Source of the DNA: Rhodospirillaceae bacterium
GTDB lineage: Bacteria; Pseudomonadota; Alphaproteobacteria; CACIAM-22H2
Assembly: GCA_022843945.1 (NCBI GenBank)
Contig: JALHMR010000007.1
Span: forward strand, 116,546 to 180,545
Direction of reading: 5' to 3'
Length of the DNA stretch: 64,000 nt
The notes beneath the pieces were generated by a model. It made no database searches. It saw only the letters and a list, made by a program, of their open reading frames with translations, and was not told where the DNA came from. This document shows, piece by piece, positions 7,090 through 64,000 of the stretch (within the stretch, counting starts at the first letter, position 1; every line of letters starts with the position of its first letter). The position numbers and the translations under genes were made by a program.

Positions 7090-7173
7090 CGGCTTTGCAA
7101 GCCTGCGATGCAGACCGGGAGGGTGCCGAAGTAGAACCCGTCTGCTAGGCTTCGTCAAACAAGGTTGGGTTGT

Positions 7174-8208
7174 ATGACTGAAGCGGTCGTCATCTGGGGA
7201 GCGGGCGCCATCGGCGGCGTTATCGGAGCATGCCTTCGGCGGGCCGGCCACGAGGTGCTGTTCGTCGACGTCGTGCCCGAGCATGTCGCGGCGATCCGCG
7301 CCGGCGGCTTGCGCGTCGAGGGTCCGGTGGCCGAGTTCAGCGTCGGCGGCGAGGCCTGCCTGCCGCATCAGATGAGCGGCAAGCACAAGCTCATCCTGCT
7401 GGCGGTCAAGGCGCATCACACCGAGGCGGCGACGCAGGCCCTCAAGCCCTTCCTCGCCGAGGACGGCGCCGTGGTCTCCTGCCAGAACGGGCTCAACGAG
7501 CTGGTCATCCAGGAGATCGTCGGCCCCCGGCGGACCATCGGCTGCTTCGTCAATTTCTACGCCGACTATCTCGAGCCGGGGCGGCTGCACTACGCCAAGC
7601 GCGGCGCGGTCGTGGTCGGCGAGCTCGACGGGCGGAAGAGCGAACGCATCGTCGCGATTCACAAGCTGATGCAGGCCTTCGACGGCGACGCGCTTCTCAG
7701 CGACAACATCTTCGGCTTCCTCTGGGGCAAGGCGGGCTACGGCGCCATTCTCAAGGCCTCGGCGCTGACCAACGACACGATGGCCGAATTCATCGGCGAT
7801 CCCGGGCGCCGCGATCTGATCGTCGCCCTGGTGCAGGAGATCCTGGCCGTGGCCGAGGCGGAGAAGGTCAAGCCGCTCGGCGGTTTCGCCGGCTACGATC
7901 CCGAGGCTTTCATGCGCCGCGACAAGGCCGCCATCGCGGCGTCGATGGCCGCCATGGCGGAGTTCAACCGCGGCTCGGCCAAGGCGCGTAGCGGCATCTG
8001 GCGGGATCTTGCGGTGCGCAAGCGGCCGACCGACGTGGCGGCGCAGCTTGCGCCGGTGCGCGAAGCCGCGCGACGCCATCGCCTGGCCACGCCGGTCGCC
8101 GACCGGCTGGTGGCGCTGATCACCGACATAGAGCAAGGTCGGGCCGAAATCGGTCCAGCCTTGGCCGACGAGCTGGCTCTCGCTGTCCCGGAAAGGACCT
8201 CCGCATGA
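7174..8208 (+). CDS. 2-dehydropantoate 2-reductase family (PanE/ApbA-like) oxidoreductase
   Basis: A Rossmann motif (VVIWGAGAIGGVIGACL) is present and the overall length is PanE-like. Confidence 0.75.
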   Translation: MTEAVVIWGAGAIGGVIGACLRRAGHEVLFVDVVPEHVAAIRAGGLRVEGPVAEFSVGGEACLPHQMSGKHKLILLAVKAHHTEAATQALKPFLAEDGAVVSCQNGLNELVIQEIVGPRRTIGCFVNFYADYLEPGRLHYAKRGAVVVGELDGRKSERIVAIHKLMQAFDGDALLSDNIFGFLWGKAGYGAILKASALTNDTMAEFIGDPGRRDLIVALVQEILAVAEAEKVKPLGGFAGYDPEAFMRRDKAAIAASMAAMAEFNRGSAKARSGIWRDLAVRKRPTDVAAQLAPVREAARRHRLATPVADRLVALITDIEQGRAEIGPALADELALAVPERTSA

Positions 8209-9131
8209 ACGAGATGAGCAAGAAGCATCCCGACGGCGAGCCCTGGCAGTGGCCGGAGAAAACCTGGCGGCGTATCGTCGGTCGCGCCCGAGCGGGGCGC
8301 TCCCTGCGCCCCACCCATTGGCCGAACAACGCGCCGGCCGCCGTGTCGCTGTCCTTCGACGCCGACCACGACACCATTCCGCTGCGCGATGCTGACGAAA
8401 GCCCGATGCGCATCAGCCAGGGTCAGTACGGCAACCGCCAGGGCACGCCGCGCATCCGCCGGCTGATGGAGAAGCACGGCGTCAAGGTGTCGTTCTTCTA
8501 TCCCGCCGTGTCGGCGCTGCTCTATCCCGACGAGGCGCGCGCCGTGGCCCAGGACGGGCACGAGATCGGCATCCATTCGTGGATCCACGAGCGCAATACC
8601 ATCCTGCCCTACGAGGTCGAGCGCGACCTCAGCTTGCGCGCGCGCGACACACTGGAGAAAGTGACCGGCCAGCGCCCGGTCGGCATGCGCACAGCGAGCT
8701 GGGATTTCTCGCCGCGCACCCTCGACATCGTGCGGGAGATGGGCCTGCTCTACGATTCCTCGCTGATGGCCGACGACGACCCGTACGAGTTGATCTCCGA
8801 CGGCACCCCTACAGGAATCGTAGAACTCCCGCCGGAATGGATCCGCGATGACGCCGTCTATTTCAACATGCACCGCTTCAGCGGCCTGCGTCCCTACACG
8901 CCACCGTCGAGCGTGCTGGAGGTGTTCCTCGGCGAGCTCGACGGCGCGATCGAGGAAGGCGGGCTGTTCCTGCTCACCATGCACCCGCACCATATCGGCC
9001 ATCGCAGCCGCATGAAGCTGCTCGAGCGCGTGATCGAGCACGCCAAGGCGAAGAAGTGCTGGTTCGCCACCCATGCCGAGGTGGCCCAGTGGTGTAAGGA
9101 TAACGCCGCGACCGGGCCGCTAGGGCGGTAG
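8205..9131 (+). CDS. Polysaccharide deacetylase family protein (PuuE/chitooligosaccharide deacetylase-like)
   Basis: Motifs include LSFDADHDT, HSWIHE and MHPHHIGHRSRMKLLERVIEH. Its start overlaps the upstream stop by 4 nt. Confidence 0.75.
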   Translation: MNEMSKKHPDGEPWQWPEKTWRRIVGRARAGRSLRPTHWPNNAPAAVSLSFDADHDTIPLRDADESPMRISQGQYGNRQGTPRIRRLMEKHGVKVSFFYPAVSALLYPDEARAVAQDGHEIGIHSWIHERNTILPYEVERDLSLRARDTLEKVTGQRPVGMRTASWDFSPRTLDIVREMGLLYDSSLMADDDPYELISDGTPTGIVELPPEWIRDDAVYFNMHRFSGLRPYTPPSSVLEVFLGELDGAIEEGGLFLLTMHPHHIGHRSRMKLLERVIEHAKAKKCWFATHAEVAQWCKDNAATGPLGR

Positions 9132-53120: not shown

Positions 53121-54989
<1,869 letters not shown>

Positions 54990-55138
54990 GGGAGGCGGCG
55001 TGATAGCACAGACGGGGCGCGGAAGCGACTGCCGGAGTTGGCGTCTAACTATCTGGAAAAACAACTCGATTTTCGTCCTGCGTGCAAAGCCGGACGGCCT
55101 GCCTATACTGGCCCGCGCCATCAAGTCGGGGGAGCGTG

Positions 55139-55792
55139 ATGATGCGAGTCGGGGGACGGGTGCTGCGTGCATGCGTGGTGGGAGCGGCCCTGCTGGCCAG
55201 CGCCTGCACCCATCTTCAGGCGACCATCGATGACCTGCAGCCGCCCCCGGCGCCGGCGCGCGCCGAGGCGCCGCTTCCCGGTACGTATCGCGTGTCCACG
55301 CCCGGCATAGCCGAGCGCAGCATGGTTCTCGTCGGCGAACTAAGGGCGGTCGGTGCCACGCGGGAAGGAACGAAATTCACCGTCACGATCCCCTACGGGG
55401 ATACGCTGCGCAAATCCTTGGAGGCTGGCGTCCGCAGCACGGTCGAAGCGGTGCAGCCAGAGGCTGGCGAGAATGCGGCGCTGATCGAGATCCGGCTGCT
55501 CTCGGCCGGCGGCAGCATCAACTACAGCGGCAACCTGAGCAGCTACAGGCAGAGCGCCTCGGCTTACATGAACTTTGACGTCGAGATCGTCTTGCGCGAC
55601 CGCCTGGGCCGGGAGACGAAAAAGGCCGTCGGGGTGAATACGCCCGGCTACTACTCCTCGTCTTTCTCGGGCGCCTATTTTGCAATCCGCGGTGCGGCGA
55701 AGGATGCAACGGAGAAGGCCATCGCGGCGCTGACGGCCAAGGTGATGGAAGAAGTTGCAGTCCTGTCGCAGAGGACCGTCGAGCTGCGCTAG
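55139..55792 (+). CDS. Hypothetical lipoprotein
   Basis: Lipobox LLASAC at the internal Met MMRVGGRVLRACVVGAALLASAC. Confidence 0.5.
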   Translation: MMRVGGRVLRACVVGAALLASACTHLQATIDDLQPPPAPARAEAPLPGTYRVSTPGIAERSMVLVGELRAVGATREGTKFTVTIPYGDTLRKSLEAGVRSTVEAVQPEAGENAALIEIRLLSAGGSINYSGNLSSYRQSASAYMNFDVEIVLRDRLGRETKKAVGVNTPGYYSSSFSGAYFAIRGAAKDATEKAIAALTAKVMEEVAVLSQRTVELR

Positions 55793-56235
55793 CGCGAGCG
55801 CCGGCCGACAGCCGATGCGAGCGCGTCAAGGATCGGCCGCTGTCCCTTGAGGATCTTGGCGTGGGCAGTCTCGAGGTCGAACCAGCCGGCGCGGTCGATT
55901 TCGGGGAAGGCGGCCCGCCGGCCCGATCGCGGCGGCCATTCCATCTCGAACAGGTTGCTTTTGAGCGCCGCCGGGTCAGCCCCGCCTTCGGCCGCCCAGG
56001 CGTGGACGATCTTGCCGCCTGGCTGCTTGAAGGCGCCCAGCGCGTGGAACGGTCCCGCGACCTCGAATCCCGTCTCCTCGCCGAACTCGCGACGGGCGGC
56101 GGCCAGCGGCTCCTCGTCCGCTTCGACCGCTCCCTTGGGAATCGTCCAGGCGCCGTCGTCCTTCTTCTTCCAGAAGGGCCCGCCGGGATGAACGAGGAAA
56201 AGCTCGATCCCTCCCTTGGCGGATCGATAGAGCAA
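55789..56235 (-). CDS. NUDIX hydrolase (copy 1)
   Basis: The Nudix box region reads GAVEADEEPLAAARREFGEETGF. Confidence 0.8.
   Translation of the reverse strand: MLYRSAKGGIELFLVHPGGPFWKKKDDGAWTIPKGAVEADEEPLAAARREFGEETGFEVAGPFHALGAFKQPGGKIVHAWAAEGGADPAALKSNLFEMEWPPRSGRRAAFPEIDRAGWFDLETAHAKILKGQRPILDALASAVGRRSR
55795..56215. repeat. Direct repeat copy A (~0.42 kb, near-identical at the nucleotide level to 59724..60170)
   Basis: Shared stretches such as GACCGCTCCCTTGGGAATCGTCCAGGCGCCGTCGTCCTT and GGCGGCCATTCCATCTCGAACAGGTTGCT. The encoded NUDIX proteins are about 85-90 % identical. Confidence 0.7.
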
Positions 56236-56751: not shown

Positions 56752-56785
56752 ATACGTGTCACGGCATCCTCCCAGGGAGAAAACG

Positions 56786-57763
56786 ATGATTTACCGAATT
56801 GCTTTTAGCCTGGTTGCCGCCGCTCTCGGCCTCGCACTGGCCGCCGGCGCCCAGGCCCAGCAGACGCTGCGCATGAGCATCTCCATCCAGCAGAACTCGC
56901 ATTACGGCGTGGCGGTGGACGCCATGGCGCGGGAGATCGAGAGGCGCACCGCCGGGCGCTACAAGATGCAGAACTTCTATGCCAGCGCGCTGGGCGCCGA
57001 GCGCGAGGCGATCGAGGGCGTTCAGCTCGGCACCATCGACCTGACCATGACCTCGACCGGCCCGATCCCCAACTTCGTGCCGGAAGTGTCGATCCTCGAC
57101 ATCCCCTTCCTGTTCCGCGACTACGCCCATGCCCGCGCCGTGCTCGACGGTCCCATCGGCACCGAGATGCTCGGCAAGTTCGACTCCAAGGGCATGAAGG
57201 CGCTCACCTGGGCGGAGAACGGCTTCCGCCACATGACCAACAACAAGCGGCCGGTCCATGCGCCGGCCGACCTCAGCGGCCTGAAGCTGCGCACCATGGA
57301 GAACCCGGTGCATATCCAGGCTTACAAGGGCTTCGGCATCATCCCGACGCCGATGGCGATCAGCGAGGTCTTCACCGCCCTCCAGCAGGGCACGGTCGAC
57401 GGCCAGGAGAACCCGATCTCCTCGATCCAGGGCCAGAAGTTCGACCAGGTGCAGAAGCACCTCTCGCTGACCGGCCACGTCTATTCGCCGGCGGTCATCC
57501 TGATGAACAAGGGCAAGTGGGATGCGCTGCCGGCGGCCGACAAGACAGCCTTCGTCGAAGCCTCCAAGGTGGCGGTCCAGGCCAACCGGGCACGCATCGA
57601 GTCCGACGAGGCGGGCGGCGTGGCCTACTTCCGCTCCAAGGGCATGGAGGTGGTGGAGAACGTCGATCGCGCCAAGTTCCAGGCAGCCCTGGCGCCGGTG
57701 TTCGTCGAGTTCAGCAAGAAGTTCGGCGAAGCGAACATCGCCCGTATCCGCGACTATAAGTAA
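56786..57763 (+). CDS. dctP: TRAP transporter substrate-binding protein DctP family
   Basis: A GGGAGAAAAC RBS and signal peptide. The DctP fold shows in ...MTSTGPIPNFVPEVSILDIPFLF. Confidence 0.85.
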   Translation: MIYRIAFSLVAAALGLALAAGAQAQQTLRMSISIQQNSHYGVAVDAMAREIERRTAGRYKMQNFYASALGAEREAIEGVQLGTIDLTMTSTGPIPNFVPEVSILDIPFLFRDYAHARAVLDGPIGTEMLGKFDSKGMKALTWAENGFRHMTNNKRPVHAPADLSGLKLRTMENPVHIQAYKGFGIIPTPMAISEVFTALQQGTVDGQENPISSIQGQKFDQVQKHLSLTGHVYSPAVILMNKGKWDALPAADKTAFVEASKVAVQANRARIESDEAGGVAYFRSKGMEVVENVDRAKFQAALAPVFVEFSKKFGEANIARIRDYK

Positions 57764-57879
57764 GCAACGAGGCCCGGGTGAGCGCCGACGGTCTCCTCCC
57801 ACCGGCGCCGCACCCCGCCATCGGGGGCGCCCGGCCCGCCTCGGCGCGGGCCGGCGCCTTTTCCTCTATCCTGGCACCC

Positions 57880-58374
57880 ATGAAGGCTACTCTGCTGGCC
57901 GTCGAGCGGCGGACCACCGACCTGGCAATGCGGGCGTCCTGTGCCATGCTGGTCGTCGCGGCCTGCATTGGCATGTACCAGATCATCACGCGGTTCGTGC
58001 TGCATCAGCCGGCCGAGTGGTCCGAGGTCTCGGTGCGGCTGGCGCTGATCTGGATGGTGTTCCTCGGCATTCCCATGGCTTTTCGCGAAGGCGCCATGGT
58101 CTGCGTCGACTTGCTCTACCGGAAGGGCGGCGCGCGCCTGCGCCGCGTGCTCGATACGCTGATCCTGGTCACCAGCCTGACGCTGGTGCTGGTGATCATC
58201 TGGTTCGGTACGGAATATGCCTGGCGGACCCGCTTTCAGACCATTCCGGGGATGGAATCGTTCACCATCATCTGGGGCTACGCGGCGATGCCGGTGGGGG
58301 CGGTCTTCTCGATTCTCTCGATCATCGCCCAGTGGCTGCAGCCCCGCCGCCACGATCTTGAGACGGCGCAATGA
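57880..58374 (+). CDS. dctQ: TRAP transporter small permease DctQ family
   Basis: Four transmembrane helices. The likely start is the internal Met MKATLLAVERR of ORF 57778. Confidence 0.7.
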   Translation: MKATLLAVERRTTDLAMRASCAMLVVAACIGMYQIITRFVLHQPAEWSEVSVRLALIWMVFLGIPMAFREGAMVCVDLLYRKGGARLRRVLDTLILVTSLTLVLVIIWFGTEYAWRTRFQTIPGMESFTIIWGYAAMPVGAVFSILSIIAQWLQPRRHDLETAQ

Positions 58375-58412: not shown

Positions 58413-59723
58413 ATGGCGACCGCAATGCTCGTGACCATGTGCCTGTGCTTCGCGCTATCGATTTCGGTCGCGGTGTCGATCGGGCTCTCGGCGCTGCTCG
58501 GCGCCTGGCTGTCGAACGTCAACATGCTGATCTCCGTCAAGGAGATGTACGCTTCGATCAACAAGTTCCCGCTGGCCGCCATTCCCTTCTTCATCCTCGC
58601 GGGTAACCTGATGGAGACCGGCGGCATCTCCAAGCGCCTGGTGGATTTCGCCAAGTCGGTGGTGGGCGGCGTGCAGGGCGGGCTGGCGGCGACCTGCGTG
58701 TTGACCTGCATGATCTTCGCCGCGGTGTCCGGCTCGAGCGTCGCCACCACCTTCGCCATCGGCGCCATCTTGATTCCGGCGCTGATTCAGCACGGCTATC
58801 CCCGCAACTACGCGGCGGCGCTGCAGGCGACTTCGGCCGAACTCGGCGTCGTCATACCGCCGTCGATTCCGATGATCATCTTCGGCGTCTCGGCCGAAGT
58901 GTCGATCGGCGAACTGTTCATCGCCGGGTTCGGCCCGGGCATCCTGATCGGTGTGGCGCTGATGATCTTCGTCATCATCTACGCCCGCTTGAAGGGCTAT
59001 GGCAAACGCGACCACGAAGGGCGGCTGCCTCTCCTCACCGCCACCCGCCAGGCTGGGTTTGCCCTGCTCATGCCCGTCATCATTCTCGGCGGCATCTATG
59101 GCGGCATCTTCACCCCCACCGAGGCGTCGGTGATGGCGGTGTTCTATGCCTTGATCGTCGGCATGGTCCTCCACCAGGAGCTGAGCTGGGCCGCCCTGGG
59201 CCCGATCCTGCGAAAATCGGCGGTGTCGTCGGCGGTGATCCTGTTCATCATCGCCAATGCCGGCCTGTTCAGCTACCTGATCACCCGGGCCGGCGTGCCC
59301 GATCAGATCGGCTCTTACCTGCGCGAAGTGCTCGACAGCCCGGCGGTATTCCTTCTCGGCGTGAACGTGGCCTTGTTCATCATCGGCATGTTCATCGAGA
59401 CCTCGGCGTCGATCATCGTCCTGGCACCGATGCTCGTACCGGTGGCCATCAGCTTCGGGATCGACCCCGTGCATTTCGGCCTGATCATGGTGGTCAACCT
59501 GGCTCTGGGCATGATAACGCCGCCGTTCGGGGTCAACCTGTTCGCCGCGTGCACGGTCGCCCGCATCACGCTCGACGAGATCGTGCCCCGCCTGCTGCCT
59601 TTCGTCCTGGTCGTGCTCGGCTGCCTGATGATCATCACCTACGTGCCGTCGATCTCGCTGACCCTGCGCGACTGGGCGTATCCGATGTCGGCGCAAAACG
59701 CCCCGGCGGCGCAGCCGCGCTAG
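58413..59723 (+). CDS. dctM: TRAP transporter large permease DctM family
   Basis: 436 aa with 12 or more transmembrane helices and the DctM family pattern. Confidence 0.85.
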   Translation: MATAMLVTMCLCFALSISVAVSIGLSALLGAWLSNVNMLISVKEMYASINKFPLAAIPFFILAGNLMETGGISKRLVDFAKSVVGGVQGGLAATCVLTCMIFAAVSGSSVATTFAIGAILIPALIQHGYPRNYAAALQATSAELGVVIPPSIPMIIFGVSAEVSIGELFIAGFGPGILIGVALMIFVIIYARLKGYGKRDHEGRLPLLTATRQAGFALLMPVIILGGIYGGIFTPTEASVMAVFYALIVGMVLHQELSWAALGPILRKSAVSSAVILFIIANAGLFSYLITRAGVPDQIGSYLREVLDSPAVFLLGVNVALFIIGMFIETSASIIVLAPMLVPVAISFGIDPVHFGLIMVVNLALGMITPPFGVNLFAACTVARITLDEIVPRLLPFVLVVLGCLMIITYVPSISLTLRDWAYPMSAQNAPAAQPR

Positions 59724-60178
59724 GCGAGCGCGGCCAGCAGCGCGGTCACGATCGGGCGCTGTCCTTTCAGGATCTTGATCAGGGCGGTATCGGCGTCGAA
59801 CCAGCCGGCCCGGTCGATTTCCGGGAATGCCGCGCGGCGGCCCGACCGCGGCGGCCATTCCATCTCGAACAGGTTGCTCTTGAGCGCCGCCGGATCGGCG
59901 TCGCCTTCGGCAGCCCAGGCGTGGACGATCTTGCCGCCGGGCTGCCTGAAGGCGCCCAGCGCGCGGAACGGCCCCTCAACCCCAAATCCCGTCTCCTCGC
60001 CGAATTCGCGAAGCGCGGCGGCCAGCGGCTCCTCGTCCGCTTCGACCGCTCCCTTGGGAATCGTCCAGGCGCCGTCGTCCTTGTTCTTCCAGAACGGCCC
60101 GCCGGGATGGACGAGGAACACCTCGGGGCCGTTGCCGCCGCGGCGATGGAGGAGGATGCCTGCGCTTTGCTTGGCCAT
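59720..60178 (-). CDS. NUDIX hydrolase (copy 2)
   Basis: Start at the internal Met MAKQSAGILLHRRG. Nudix box GAVEADEEPLAAALREFGEETGF. Confidence 0.8.
   Translation of the reverse strand: MAKQSAGILLHRRGGNGPEVFLVHPGGPFWKNKDDGAWTIPKGAVEADEEPLAAALREFGEETGFGVEGPFRALGAFRQPGGKIVHAWAAEGDADPAALKSNLFEMEWPPRSGRRAAFPEIDRAGWFDADTALIKILKGQRPIVTALLAALA
59724..60170. repeat. Direct repeat copy B (pairs with 55795..56215)
   Basis: See copy A. Both copies share orientation and flank dctPQM. Confidence 0.7.
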
Positions 60179-60245
60179 GGTCTGCGATCTTAGCGTTGCA
60201 TCGTCGTCAGGCCGATGGGCGATAAAAGGGGGGAGGAGACGTCCC

Positions 60246-60989
60246 ATCGAGTCGCTGACACCCGCCGCTCTCGCATACTGCGCCATTGTTCTCGTACTCT
60301 CCTACGGCCTGCGCGGCACCGCGGGCTTCGGCAGCGTGGTGGCCATGCCGCTGCTCGCCCTGGTCATCCCGATGAAGATCCTGGTGCCGGCCTGGACGCT
60401 GATGGGCATCGCCTCGTCGCTGACTGTGCTCGGCCGCGACCGGGCGCATATCGTGGTCAGGGACCTGGGCCGCATCCTGCCGGCCTGCATCCTGGGCATC
60501 GGCCTCGGACTCTATGTCTTTGCCACGCTCGACACCGACACCTTGGCGCGGGGATTGGGCATCGCCATCATCCTCTACGGGATGTATTCGCTGTGGAGCG
60601 GCGGCAAGGCCGACCCCGCGCAGCCACGCTCACCGCGCCTCGTCGGTCCGATATCGGGCATCCTCGGCGGCATCACCGGGGCCACCTTCGGCACCATGGC
60701 CAGCCTGTTCTTTGCGGTCTATCTCGACGCGCTGCGTGTCACCAAGGTCCAGTTCCGCGCCACCATGTCGGCGCTGCTGCTCACCCTCGGCACCGTCCGG
60801 GGCCTCGGTTACTACGCGGTGGGAGAGTTCAGCCTCGAGGCCCTGATCCTGTTCGCCGCCGGCCTGCCGCTGATGCTGCTTGGCATGTACCTGGGCGACC
60901 GCATCCACGCCCGGATCAGCGAAAGCGTGTTCCGGCGCCTGGTCAGCGCCATCCTGATCGTCAGCGGCATCGCCCTTCTTATTCGCTGA
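60246..60989 (+). CDS. TauE/SafE-family exporter (second paralog); start codon unresolved
   Basis: LTPAALAYCAIVLVLSYGLRGTAGFGSVVAMPLLAL and the rest of the TauE topology. No in-frame ATG, GTG or TTG lies upstream of the first transmembrane helix in my reading. Confidence 0.65.
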   Translation: MESLTPAALAYCAIVLVLSYGLRGTAGFGSVVAMPLLALVIPMKILVPAWTLMGIASSLTVLGRDRAHIVVRDLGRILPACILGIGLGLYVFATLDTDTLARGLGIAIILYGMYSLWSGGKADPAQPRSPRLVGPISGILGGITGATFGTMASLFFAVYLDALRVTKVQFRATMSALLLTLGTVRGLGYYAVGEFSLEALILFAAGLPLMLLGMYLGDRIHARISESVFRRLVSAILIVSGIALLIR

Positions 60990-61176
60990 GCGCGCGCCGG
61001 GTGACCGGGATCACAGCCGGCCGCCAGCGGGCGGGCTAAGTCACGAATCCGGCACCCTTTCTTCCGCGTGCCCTGTCGGCTATCGTCCCGCTGGCACGGC
61101 ATGGCGGCGGGCAAGGGCGCCGGTCCATGTAACCACGCAATTTGGGGGCCTGCTGCCGATGGCGGCGGGTGCGTCG

Positions 61177-63843
61177 ATGGAAACCAGCCTGCATCGCTTT
61201 GTCATCAATCACTCCAAGAAGGAGACCGGCTTTCTTATTGCCCTGACGCTGCTCTCGCTGCCCATCTACTACATCACCCTCGACATCCCGAAGAACGTCT
61301 TCAACCAGGGCATCCTGGGCAAGGGCATCACCTTCCCCACGACCGTGTTCGGCGTGTCGATGGATCAGGTTGGCTACCTGTTCTGGCTATGCTTCCTGTT
61401 CTTCTGCTCGGTGATGGTGAACGGCGCCATCAAGCAGTACATCAACACCTACAAGGGCCGCCTGGGCGAGCGCCTGCTGCGCCGCCTGCGCTATGAGCTG
61501 GTGTCGCGCATCATGCGCTTCCCGCTGCCCCATTTCCGCAAGGTGTCGTCCGGCGAGCTGATCCCGATGATCACCGCCGAGGTCGAGCCGCTGGGCGGCT
61601 ACATGGGCGATGCCTTCGCCCAGCCGCTGATCCAGGCCGGCACGCTGGCGACCATCGCCACCTTCCTGTTCATCCAGAACTGGATGATGGGCATCGCGGC
61701 GATCGTCTTCTTCCCGCTGCAGGGCTACATCATCCCGAAAATGCAGCGCAAGGTGAACCAGCTCGGCAAGGAGCGGGTGCGCGCCATGCGCAAGGTCTCC
61801 GAGCGCATCGGCGAGGCGGTGGCCGGCGCGCACGAGATCCATGCCAACGGCACGGCGAATTACGAGCGCGCCGATTTCTCCGACCGGCTGGGCCGCGTCT
61901 TCAGCATCCGCTTCCAGATCTACATCCGCAAGGGCCAGGTCAAGTTCCTCAACAACTTCCTCAACCAGATGGCGCCGCTGCTCTTCTACTCGCTCGGCGG
62001 CTACCTGGTGATCCAGGGCGAGCTGACGGCGGGCGCGCTGGCCGCGGCGCTGACCGCGCACAAGGACATGTCGGCGCCGTGGAAGGAGCTGCTCGACTAC
62101 TACCAGCAGACGGCGGACTCGAAGATCAAGTACGAGCAGGTCACCGAGCAGTTCCGGCCGGAGAACATGTTCGACGAGGCGCTGCAGGTGCCGCTCAGTG
62201 AGGCGCCCAAGCGCCTGCGAGGCGATATCGTGGCCAACAACCTGGTGGTGGTCGACGAGAGCGCCACGCGGCTGCTCGACGGCATCACCGCGGCGATCAA
62301 GGCGGGGGAGAAGGTCGCCGTGGTCGGCCGGGTCGGCGGCGGCAAGGAAGCGCTGGCCATGGCGCTGGCCCGGCTCTACCTGCCGAGCGGCGGCAAGCTG
62401 ACCTACGGCGGCGCCGACGGTCTGACGCTGTCCGAGCCGATGCTGGGGGCCCGCCTGGGCTACGTGGCGCAGAACTCGTACCTGTTCTCGTCCAGTGTGC
62501 GCGACAACATCCTCTATGGGCTGCGCCAGCGGCCGATCGCGCCCAAGCAGCGCGAGCCGGCGGCCGAAGCCGAGCGCCAGAAGTTCCTGGCCGAGACCAG
62601 GCGCGCCGGCAATCTCGATCTCGACGGCGAGGCCGACTGGACCGACCTGGCAGCGGCCGAGATCAAGGATCCGTCGGCGCTCTCGTCGCGCATCGTCGAG
62701 GTGCTGATGGCCGTCGACCTCGAAGAGGACGTTTTCCAGCTCGGCCTGCGCGGCACGATCGATCCCAAGGCGCACCCGACCATCGCCGGGCGCATCCTCG
62801 AGGCCCGCAAGGGGCTGCAGCAGCGGCTCGACGACAAGGCGACCGAAGCGGGGATGAGAGGCCTGATCGAGCCGTTCCATCCCGAGCGCTACAACACCAA
62901 CGCGACCCTGGCGGAGAACCTGCTGTTCGGCACGCCCATCCAGCCGGCCTTCGAGGTCGACAGGCTGGCGACCAACTATGCCGTGCTCAAGGTGCTCGAC
63001 CAGGTCGGGCTGGCCGAGAAGCTGGTCGCCGCCGGGCGCGAAGTGGCCGCGGAAATGATCGAAATCTTCGCCGACCTGCCGCCGGATCACGAATTCTTCG
63101 AGCAGTTCGGTTTCATCTCCTCCGACGACCTGCCGGAGTTCCAGGCGATCCTGTCGCGCATCTCGCGCCCCGATACGCCGATGCTGCCCGAGGACCGCGC
63201 CCGGCTGATGACCCTGCCGTTCAAGCTGATTCAGACCCGCCACCGTCTCGACGTGCTGACCCCCGAGCTGAAGGACAAGGTTCTGGAGGCTCGCCAGGCG
63301 CTGCGCGCCAGCGAGGATCCGGTGGTCAAGGTCGGCGTCGAGTTCTTCGATCCCGACACCTACAACGCCGCGGCGACCATCCAGGACAACATCCTGTTCG
63401 GCAAGCTGGCCTACGGCCAGGCCAAGGCCAGCCAGCGCGTCGGCAAGGTGATCGAGGCGATCCTTAACGATCTCAACCTGCGCTCGACCGTGGTCGAGGT
63501 CGGGCTGGAATTCGCGGTCGGCGTCGGCGGCGCCAGGCTTGCGCCGCCGCAGCGGGCGAAGGTGGCGCTGGCCCGCGCGCTGCTCAAGCGGCCGGATGTG
63601 CTGATCGTCAACGAGGCGACGGCGATCCTCGACGCCCAGAGCCAGGCGCGCACGCTCGACGGCGTGCTCAAGGAATCCGACGGGCGCACCCTGATCTGGG
63701 TGTTGCACAATCCGACACATGCCAGCCGCTTCGACCGGGTGCTGGTGATCGGCGAGGGCCGGGTTATCGAGTCCGGGTCGGTCGGCGATCTGCAGAAGGA
63801 CGGCAGCGTGTTCGCCGAGCTGATGACCGCGGCGGCGGCGTAA
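61177..63843 (+). CDS. ABC exporter-like protein (type-I TMD + NBD) with degenerate Walker A/signature/Walker B and a ~300-aa insertion holding three Q-loop-like repeats
   Basis: The TMD is about 330 aa. Walker A is GRVGGGKEA (Glu where Ser/Thr is expected). The signature reads VGVGGARLAPPQRAKVALARALL (no LSGGQ) and Walker B is VLIVNEAT. Three repeats are YVAQNSYLFSSSVRDNILYG, IEPFHPERYNTNATLAENLLFG and VEFFDPDTYNAAATIQDNILFG. Confidence 0.8.
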   Translation: METSLHRFVINHSKKETGFLIALTLLSLPIYYITLDIPKNVFNQGILGKGITFPTTVFGVSMDQVGYLFWLCFLFFCSVMVNGAIKQYINTYKGRLGERLLRRLRYELVSRIMRFPLPHFRKVSSGELIPMITAEVEPLGGYMGDAFAQPLIQAGTLATIATFLFIQNWMMGIAAIVFFPLQGYIIPKMQRKVNQLGKERVRAMRKVSERIGEAVAGAHEIHANGTANYERADFSDRLGRVFSIRFQIYIRKGQVKFLNNFLNQMAPLLFYSLGGYLVIQGELTAGALAAALTAHKDMSAPWKELLDYYQQTADSKIKYEQVTEQFRPENMFDEALQVPLSEAPKRLRGDIVANNLVVVDESATRLLDGITAAIKAGEKVAVVGRVGGGKEALAMALARLYLPSGGKLTYGGADGLTLSEPMLGARLGYVAQNSYLFSSSVRDNILYGLRQRPIAPKQREPAAEAERQKFLAETRRAGNLDLDGEADWTDLAAAEIKDPSALSSRIVEVLMAVDLEEDVFQLGLRGTIDPKAHPTIAGRILEARKGLQQRLDDKATEAGMRGLIEPFHPERYNTNATLAENLLFGTPIQPAFEVDRLATNYAVLKVLDQVGLAEKLVAAGREVAAEMIEIFADLPPDHEFFEQFGFISSDDLPEFQAILSRISRPDTPMLPEDRARLMTLPFKLIQTRHRLDVLTPELKDKVLEARQALRASEDPVVKVGVEFFDPDTYNAAATIQDNILFGKLAYGQAKASQRVGKVIEAILNDLNLRSTVVEVGLEFAVGVGGARLAPPQRAKVALARALLKRPDVLIVNEATAILDAQSQARTLDGVLKESDGRTLIWVLHNPTHASRFDRVLVIGEGRVIESGSVGDLQKDGSVFAELMTAAAA

Positions 63844-63866
63844 AGCAGGGTGAGGGGAGACTGACG

Positions 63867-64000
63867 ATGTCGATCAAGGAAGAAGTCGAGGTCCTGCGCA
63901 ACATCCCGCTTTTCGCCAAGCTCGAATCGGCGAAGCTGAAGCTGCTGGCCTTCACCAGCGAGCGCCTGACCTTCGATACCGGGCAGCCGCTGTTCCAGCA
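63867..64000 (+). CDS. Cyclic nucleotide-binding domain protein (Crp/Fnr-like), partial at the 3' end
   Basis: MSIKEEVEVLRNIPLFAKLESAKLKLLAFTSERLTFDTGQPLFQ is a cNMP-binding N-terminus, with a GAGGGGAG RBS. Confidence 0.6.
   Translation, partial: MSIKEEVEVLRNIPLFAKLESAKLKLLAFTSERLTFDTGQPLFQ

Follow-up and report, generated by a model that had tools for sequence, protein, structure and literature searches.

An ABC-exporter-fold protein family of Alphaproteobacteria with a degenerate ATPase site, a triplicated insertion in its nucleotide-binding domain and a cyclic-nucleotide-binding partner

What is left for an ATP-binding cassette (ABC) exporter to do when the residues that define its ATPase site have been replaced? 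The question is raised by a gene in a 64,000-nucleotide stretch of Rhodospirillaceae bacterium DNA (assembly GCA_022843945.1, contig JALHMR010000007.1, positions 116,546 to 180,545; hereafter the window), whose product is built like a type-I exporter, with a transmembrane domain (TMD) followed by a nucleotide-binding domain (NBD). We hold it to be somewhat the likelier case that this reading frame belongs to a large family, as yet unnamed and mainly alphaproteobacterial, of ABC proteins with the type-I exporter fold, in which a pseudo-ATPase NBD operates as one half of a two-component system, the other half being a cyclic nucleoside monophosphate (cNMP)-binding protein, here called CNB. The frame opens at ATG 61177, in agreement with the N-termini of homologues (consensus MExSxYRF...), and encodes 888 residues, one fewer than the 889 given in a first-pass annotation of this DNA; an alternative in-frame ATG at 61159, the form picked by gene callers, yields 894.

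The first-pass annotation described the TMD as that of a normal type-I exporter, and the database matches bear this out. Pfam recognises ABC_membrane (PF00664) at residues 63–293 (E 9e-21) and ABC_tran (PF00005, E 2.4e-15) in two blocks, residues 367–473 and ~730–885. The NCBIfam and PDB matches are all to generic type-I exporters (MsbA, HepA, TAP, BSEP, Pgp, BmrA and TM287/288), and every one of these alignments is likewise in two blocks, separated by a gap of ~270–320 residues. None of the 25 NCBIfam families listed reaches its curated cutoff; the top match, MsbA (TIGR02203), scores 206.6 bits against a cutoff of 602. An AlphaFold2 (AF2) model built on an alignment of 57 sequences, the kind of prediction that the first-pass annotation had called for, is confident (mean pLDDT 85.7, pTM 0.78), and its best Foldseek matches are MsbA, TmrAB, TM287/288 and Pgp. 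The predicted structure shows the TMD and the RecA-like NBD scaffold to be intact and confidently folded.

A folded insertion of ~270–320 residues divides the NBD. It had been read as a triplication of the Q-loop/helical-subdomain motif, and the three Q-loop-like modules quoted for it, LGYVAQNSYLFSSSVRDNILYG, IEPFHPERYNTNATLAENLLFGTP and VEFFDPDTYNAAATIQDNILFGKL, are all found at their assigned positions. Self-BLAST of the protein returns no internal repeat, and the repetition is visible only with family profiles. When whole units are compared profile to profile with hhalign (106-sequence profiles), unit B matches unit C (residues 536–700 vs 700–803) with a probability of 99.0% (E 2.5e-18, 79 columns), unit A matches unit C (420–536 vs 700–803) with 95.4% (E 1.9e-8, 71 columns, a 39-residue stretch of unit A being skipped) and unit A matches unit B (420–536 vs 536–700) with 87.7% (E 3.4e-6, 64 columns); an earlier comparison of modules B and C with 57 sequences gave a probability of 97.5%. 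The repeat unit consists of a helix (iLeARxaL in B and C), a β-strand, an 11-residue loop with the short helix xxDN(I/L)LFG, and a further helix with a '(v)GL' turn, and its counterpart in a canonical NBD begins at the Q-loop strand and stops just short of the signature; unit C runs on into the signature and then the C-terminal NBD half. In the AF2 model, where most of the insertion has a pLDDT above 90, the strand–loop–short helix element occurs three times, at residues 427–449, 564–587 and 721–744, and the insertion is therefore best described as folded, with the N-terminal portion of the helical subdomain present three times in tandem. The unit B core is near-invariant, and alignment of the homologues shows the cores of units B and C to be the most conserved cytosolic elements of the protein. 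Neither Pfam nor NCBIfam holds a model for the insertion or the family, Pfam has no match in the insertion or unit B, and an AF2 model of the insertion alone (pLDDT 82) finds no PDB structure by Foldseek at E ≤ 1e-3 (best 0.77).

An insertion of this kind could be an artefact of assembly or sequencing, or the gene could be a decaying pseudogene. The first of these had been named as an outcome that would undo the first-pass description, and it is excluded because more than 100 full-length homologues of ~880 residues, recovered by a word-indexed search at 50–83% identity, carry the insertion at the same place. The intact frame, the near-invariant repeat cores and the confident fold likewise contradict an artefact; in its favour stand only the unusual length and motifs, and we regard it as already refuted, with a negligible remaining probability. 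A scan of one genome per species located at least 577 loci, essentially all in Alphaproteobacteria, among them the cultured Azospirillum, Thalassobaculum, Nisaea, Sneathiella, Inquilinus and Oceanibacterium and metagenome-assembled genomes of Tagaea, Stellaceae and Geminicoccaceae. Searched alone, the insertion (residues 455–720) collects 829 clusters at 50% identity with E ≤ 1e-3, of which 565 have E ≤ 1e-10, and its position is nearly constant in proteins of ~870–930 residues; these numbers answer the question of distribution that the first-pass annotation had raised. The protein studied here has the features by which we recognise the family, namely the unit B and C motifs (YNxNA[TS]xxENLLFG and xxDNILFG[KR]) between the Walker A and signature regions and a CNB downstream or fused. 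At one locus (L083, 1370–4030) the protein is apparently split into a TMD (339 residues) and an NBD with the insertion (543 residues), encoded by adjacent genes 9 nucleotides apart and followed by CNB and then a Methyltransf_17 gene. Many of the ~520–570-residue representatives from the insertion search may be of this split type; one NBD-only match in that size range (P0150) is a fragment of a 1198-residue protein. Source annotations of the members are generic, and full-text searching of the literature found no published description. The family is thus unnamed, widespread and experimentally tractable, and no publication or curated family describes it.

The ATP site is unusual as well. The three motifs on which the first-pass annotation rested, GRVGGGKEA, GGARLAPPQRA and VLIVNEAT (nucleotides 63598–63621), are all present at the positions given for them, and in HMMER alignments with BSEP and Pgp they stand opposite GPSGAGKST, GGGQMSGGQKQ and LLLDMAT, that is, opposite the canonical Walker A, signature and Walker B, which removes the concern that they had been misassigned. 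The protein reads GRVGGGKE where the Walker A pattern is GxxGxGK[S/T], LAPPQ where the signature is LSGGQ and VLIVN-E where Walker B is hhhhD-E, and matches none of these patterns. The Walker A Ser/Thr is indeed replaced by Glu, as had been proposed; the residue was called catalytic, however, when its role is to coordinate Mg2+. An aromatic A-loop residue is missing from the protein and from its 57 close relatives. Q-loop Gln432 and H-loop His844 are present, but the Gln is found in only 17 and the His in 32 of those relatives. Elsewhere in the window, at 53121–55172 (−), an unrelated soluble protein of the ABC-F type has two NBDs with canonical motifs (GRNGAGKST/LLLDEPTNHLD and GSNGNGKST/LVLDEPTNHLD), an internal contrast within the same genome.

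We compared the site in the 57 close sequences and in 50 distant representatives at 28–49% identity. Walker A has Lys in 42 and Arg in 15 of the close sequences, with Lys in 20 of the distant ones, and the Ser/Thr that follows occurs in no close sequence (Glu in 43, Asp in 14) and in 14 distant ones. The Q-loop Gln is kept in 3/50 distant members. A signature Gly-Gly is found in 2–6 of the close sequences, where the motif runs L-[S/A/T]-x-x-Q, and in 2–3 of the distant ones, and SGG is found in no member of either set. Walker B Asp is likewise absent from the close set (Asn in 56/57) and present in 17/50 distant members; the catalytic position holds Glu in 41 and Asp in 14 close sequences, and Glu in 19 distant ones. 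Some distant members have no recognisable P-loop, and one (P0178) has lost its ABC_tran match altogether while keeping the insertion, the partner gene and the glycosyltransferase neighbours. In model ABC transporters, the Walker B Asp-to-Asn change and substitutions of the signature Gly or Ser each abolish hydrolysis. The comparison thus favours the first-pass view of a non-hydrolytic ABC module: the deviations extend through the close family (Lys/Arg-Glu/Asp in Walker A in 57/57, Walker B Asn, loss of the signature Gly-Gly), and in the wider insertion-bearing family even the Lys, catalytic Glu and H-loop His appear to be dispensable (His in 4/50).

We read the NBD as a pseudo-ATPase because the TMD (conservation 0.77/0.58), unit B (0.84/0.65) and unit C (0.82/0.58) are the best conserved parts of the protein and the two RecA-core halves the least (0.65–0.60/0.45–0.38). 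The TMD is the best-conserved large region, with helix residues and intracellular loops included. As judged from the alignments, this pattern is the signature of a pseudo-enzyme in which the TMD and the new repeat units are the selected surfaces.

Several observations weigh against this reading. The close subfamily keeps its deviant site with great constancy (GxxGGG[KR][ED] in 57/57, N[ED] in 56/57, the D-loop Asp in 55/57), and the protein itself retains Lys390, Gln432, Glu813 and His844. Because [K/R][E/D]...N[E/D] is so strongly conserved within its own subfamily, a non-canonical phosphate/metal or nucleotide site, or a self-occupied P-loop, is possible. In addition, the proposal for a substrate, set out below, rests on neighbouring genes that are missing from this window, and CNB-like domains can bind ligands other than cNMPs, such as ppGpp in HetC (PMC10986499). 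The conserved residues at the site are also what would be expected if ATP still drove export through an unusual site, with Mg2+ coordinated directly by the Walker A Glu in place of both the Ser/Thr and the Walker B Asp, and with CNB modulating the activity; a distant member with GSGKST and LILDEA (P0219) fits as well. However, neither an SGG signature nor an A-loop aromatic is found, close relatives vary at the Lys, the Gln and the His, and the wider family, with the same insertion and CNB, mostly lacks the Lys, the Glu and the His, one locus (L085) being without an ABC_tran match. Nor is the covariation of K-E with N that a compensated site would predict observed, and we consider an active ATPase distinctly unlikely. 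We also rejected a charge swap in which Ser to Glu in Walker A and Asp to Asn in Walker B would compensate for each other, as distant members pair K-S with N and K-E with D.

If ATP hydrolysis does not drive the protein, what controls it? The first-pass annotation mentioned in passing that a cNMP-binding protein lies next door; we find this adjacency to be the key to the system. The CNB gene is cut by the window end, and a contig encoding an identical ABC protein (L001) supplies its full length of 151 residues, with one cNMP_binding domain (PF00027, E 1.4e-19) and nothing else. The protein has a phosphate-binding cassette of the form G-E...R-[ST]-A (GEIAILCDVPRTAT), and over 82 orthologues the G, E, P-R and A of this cassette, GE.AIL...PR.A, are at least 90% conserved; the conservation of CNB as a whole equals or exceeds that of the ABC protein. 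In all 82 loci it lies directly downstream on the same strand, typically after 12–70 nucleotides, and its presence in four further, divergent loci (L083–L086) brings the count to 86/86 examined. The two proteins are also found fused: all seven scanned proteins of ~1030–1085 residues or longer are TMD-NBD(insertion)-CNB fusions, one of them from the cultured Bosea psychrotolerans, and three more proteins, from other metagenomes (P0208, P0243, P0277), add a GGDEF domain after CNB. A class III adenylate/guanylate cyclase gene directly follows CNB in five loci (L063, L077, L081, L082 and L086). In L086 the start of this gene (Guanylate_cyc, 7124–8299) overlaps the CNB stop, and its product has an N-terminal domain of ~200 residues.

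Taken together, the unvarying adjacency, the fusions and the cyclase gene in the same operon at some loci argue strongly, from gene content and order, that CNB and the ABC-fold protein are one cNMP-responsive unit. Because the cNMP sensor is always adjacent or fused, the ABC protein is probably under the control of a second messenger and not of ATP hydrolysis. The ABC protein is the logical candidate for the effector, since a CNB domain serves as an input and nothing else in the module, apart from the ABC protein, is invariant. The GGDEF motifs of the fusions are degenerate (SDTMF, DLCRF), which suggests receptor domains for c-di-GMP or GTP rather than cyclases, and a diguanylate-cyclase output from these fusions was rejected on the same ground.

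The invariance of CNB also bears on the first-pass proposal that the protein is the regulatory half of a heterodimer, whose consensus-site partner would be encoded elsewhere in the genome. The proposal has a precedent: TM287/288, TmrAB, BmrCD, CFTR, SUR, MRP1 and TAP have, like this protein, non-consensus Walker B, signature or H-loop residues in an exporter-fold NBD, and the well-studied degenerate sites of type-I exporters all belong to heterodimers or pseudo-heterodimers in which a consensus site always coexists and the degenerate site is structural or regulatory rather than catalytic (PMC7756269). In those systems, unlike here, the triplicated insertion is absent. Moreover, the window contains no other ABC exporter and none is conserved within ±4 kb in the 82 loci, the family has one gene whose invariant partner is CNB, both faces of its site deviate, and even the P-loop Lys is lost in relatives. 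Walker A, Walker B and the signature are all degenerate in one chain; therefore neither composite site formed with a canonical partner would be fully consensus. We consider such a heterodimer very unlikely.

The genes around the family point to what the unit might act on. In 68 of the 82 loci a divergent glycosyltransferase gene of the GT28-C type (~400 residues, 62–80% identity across genera) lies upstream of the pair, and in 65 it is accompanied by a GT4 glycosyltransferase closest to EpsE-type exopolysaccharide enzymes, below cutoff (examples: L040 1307–3807 (−) and L085 1–3675 (−)). A Methyltransf_17 gene (PF12692, ~162 residues, E 3.7e-51) directly follows CNB in ~56 of the 82 (for instance L032 7212–7712; also L083 4537–5040), and other methyltransferases take this slot at two divergent loci: a Methyltransf_11/23-type gene in L084 and Methyltransf_21 in L086. 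In L086 the cyclase gene is followed by Methyltransf_21 and a CDP-alcohol phosphatidyltransferase gene, a context that hints at a connection to lipid head groups. None of these glycosyltransferase, Methyltransf_17 or cyclase genes is present in our 64-kb window, and the closest relatives (L003, L004) are also without adjacent glycosyltransferases.

This tight, conserved linkage with two glycosyltransferases, taken with the lost ATPase site and the GGDEF fusions of some lineages, could also be accounted for by a dimeric membrane scaffold or sensor that translocates nothing; it would respond to a cue from the membrane or periplasm, or else regulate the neighbouring glycosyltransferases, and would signal through CNB or sequester it. 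We find this rather unlikely: the conservation of TMD helices and intracellular loops exceeds the needs of an anchor, CNB is an input domain and no output domain is conserved besides the ABC protein, and the GGDEF domains, because their motif is degenerate, look like additional ligand inputs and not like outputs.

Our general model, of a cNMP-controlled, hydrolysis-independent membrane effector with an ABC fold, is one toward which the comparative evidence leans, if modestly. In this model the ABC protein and CNB, encoded 24 nucleotides apart, would act as a two-component module. The ABC protein would be a homodimer with two equivalent dead sites, the simplest arrangement because no partner half-transporter is conserved. 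CNB would dock on the expanded helical subdomain: the extra repeat units are a likely docking platform because no other cytosolic elements are as well conserved and because, in some lineages, fusion places CNB beside them. Binding of cNMP, and not ATP hydrolysis, would then set the association or geometry of the two pseudo-NBDs, and their arrangement would set the conformation of the TMD via the coupling helices. The TMD could serve as an energy-independent gated pathway (a channel, facilitator or flippase), and the glycosyltransferases encoded beside the module in most genomes, though not in this one, would be the source of its likely cargo, a lipid-linked or glycan molecule. The more specific version, in which cNMP on CNB replaces ATP, closes the pseudo-NBD dimer and opens a path through the TMD, so that the protein would be a cNMP-gated, ATP-independent translocator, we put forward only tentatively. 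Exporter TMDs can reportedly act independently of ATP, the precedent being work on ion-motive-force coupling in LmrA.

Known systems share parts of this design. MsbA, HepA, ChvA/NdvA and PglK have the same TMD–NBD half-transporter order and fold, and lipid-linked or glycan molecules are among the substrates of several, in keeping with the glycosyltransferase context of most members of the family. In contrast to MsbA-type homodimers, the present protein has a non-canonical Walker A, Walker B and signature, an NBD split by the triplication and an obligate CNB partner. CFTR and SUR put an exporter fold to a use other than ATP-driven pumping, as a gated channel or a channel regulator; the likeness, on which our proposed mechanism is patterned, is one of analogy, with homology at the level of the ABC fold. 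In CFTR, cyclic-nucleotide control is indirect, through phosphorylation of the R domain by PKA, and ATP binding and hydrolysis are needed at one site, whereas CNB in our loci would be a direct partner. Receptors of the PelD type are degenerate-GGDEF second-messenger receptors of exopolysaccharide machines; the resemblance, again analogy only and confined to second-messenger control of glycan export, is limited to the GGDEF-fused relatives and the polysaccharide-type glycosyltransferase neighbours, the protein studied here having no GGDEF domain. A related layout is seen in HetC of Nostoc and in bacteriocin-type systems with TIGR03896 'cyc_nuc_ocin' proteins, in which a cNMP-type domain is coupled to a type-I exporter, fused or separate, as in our module. 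The match to TIGR03896 is weak (44.5 bits against a cutoff of 161). The N-terminal cNMP domain of HetC binds ppGpp, and a catalytic residue of its ATPase is essential (PMC10986499). These systems differ from the family in being active ATPases with a peptidase domain or peptide cargo and in having no insertion in the NBD.

The features of the locus are collected in Table 1.

Table 1. Coordinates of the ABC gene, its ATP-site motifs and repeat units, and the CNB partner gene in the window
Feature	Position (nt)	Strand	Basis
ABC gene, 888-residue type-I exporter-fold protein with putative pseudo-NBD	61177..63843	+	ATG 61177 to stop 63843
Transmembrane domain, residues 1–330, six long helices	61177..62166	+	Pfam ABC_membrane E 9e-21; AF2 helices; conservation 0.77 and 0.58
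Deviant Walker A GRVGGGKEA (Lys-Glu, not Lys-Ser/Thr)	62326..62352	+	motif alignment, direct read
Repeat unit A, residues 424–535: Q-loop strand, ...RDNILYG, ~39-residue unit-A-specific stretch, helix IVEVLMAVDLEEDVFQLGL	62446..62781	+	hhalign; AF2
Repeat unit B, residues 536–700: helix ILEARKGL, strand IEPF, YNTNATLAENLLFGTP, helix VLKVLDQVGL, helical extension	62782..63276	+	hhalign; conservation 0.84
Repeat unit C, residues 701–783: helix VLEARQAL, strand VEFF, YNAAATIQDNILFGK, helix IEAILNDLNL...VGLEF	63277..63525	+	hhalign
Degenerate signature GGARLAPPQRA (LAPPQ for LSGGQ)	63526..63558	+	motif alignment, direct read
Deviant Walker B VLIVNE (Asn for Asp; Glu kept), then D-loop AILD	63598..63633	+	motif alignment, direct read
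H-loop VLHNP, His present	63700..63714	+	direct read; His in 32/57 close, 4/50 distant relatives
Shine-Dalgarno-like GAGGGGAG, in the 24-nt gap between ABC stop and CNB start	63852..63859	+	direct read
CNB partner gene, 5' part, cut by window end after 133 nt	63868..64000	+	full length seen in L001

The surroundings of the pair in this genome differ from those of most relatives. Upstream lie a TauE-family permease gene, a NUDIX gene and a TRAP transporter. The TauE/SafE permease gene (PF01925, E 5.8e-26; 60345–60989 (+)) ends 170–190 nucleotides before the ABC gene. Of the 82 loci only L001 has it beside the ABC gene, which places it outside the conserved module. Downstream of CNB, as seen in L001, gene calling puts the next gene on the opposite strand. 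Two paralogous NUDIX genes, 55789–56235 (−) and 59720–60286 (−), contain a 300-nucleotide direct repeat (55820–56119 and 59739–60038, 87% identity) and flank a complete TRAP operon (DctP-like 56756–57763, DctQ-like 57778–58374, DctM-like 58413–59723). The NUDIX repeat upstream of the permease and ABC genes looks, from its arrangement, like the footprint of a duplication or insertion, and this footprint may explain why the glycosyltransferase pair is missing here.

ABC exporters are defined by the ATP-driven dimerisation of their NBDs. In the family described here both faces of the site have decayed, the helical subdomain is triplicated and a cNMP sensor is obligate. Should the cNMP-gated reading prove correct, no earlier ABC exporter family would have given up both of its nucleotide sites and put a second messenger in their place. 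The protein would then be a bacterial channel, facilitator or flippase that might carry a glycolipid or a lipid-linked glycan. The family would also show how an exporter scaffold can be rewired to a different ligand, and the capabilities of an ABC exporter TMD once hydrolysis is gone could be tested on a natural example. For the Alphaproteobacteria, in which few effectors of cNMP signalling are known, it would supply a direct membrane effector, and second-messenger signalling may in these organisms be tied to the export of glycans or glycolipids.

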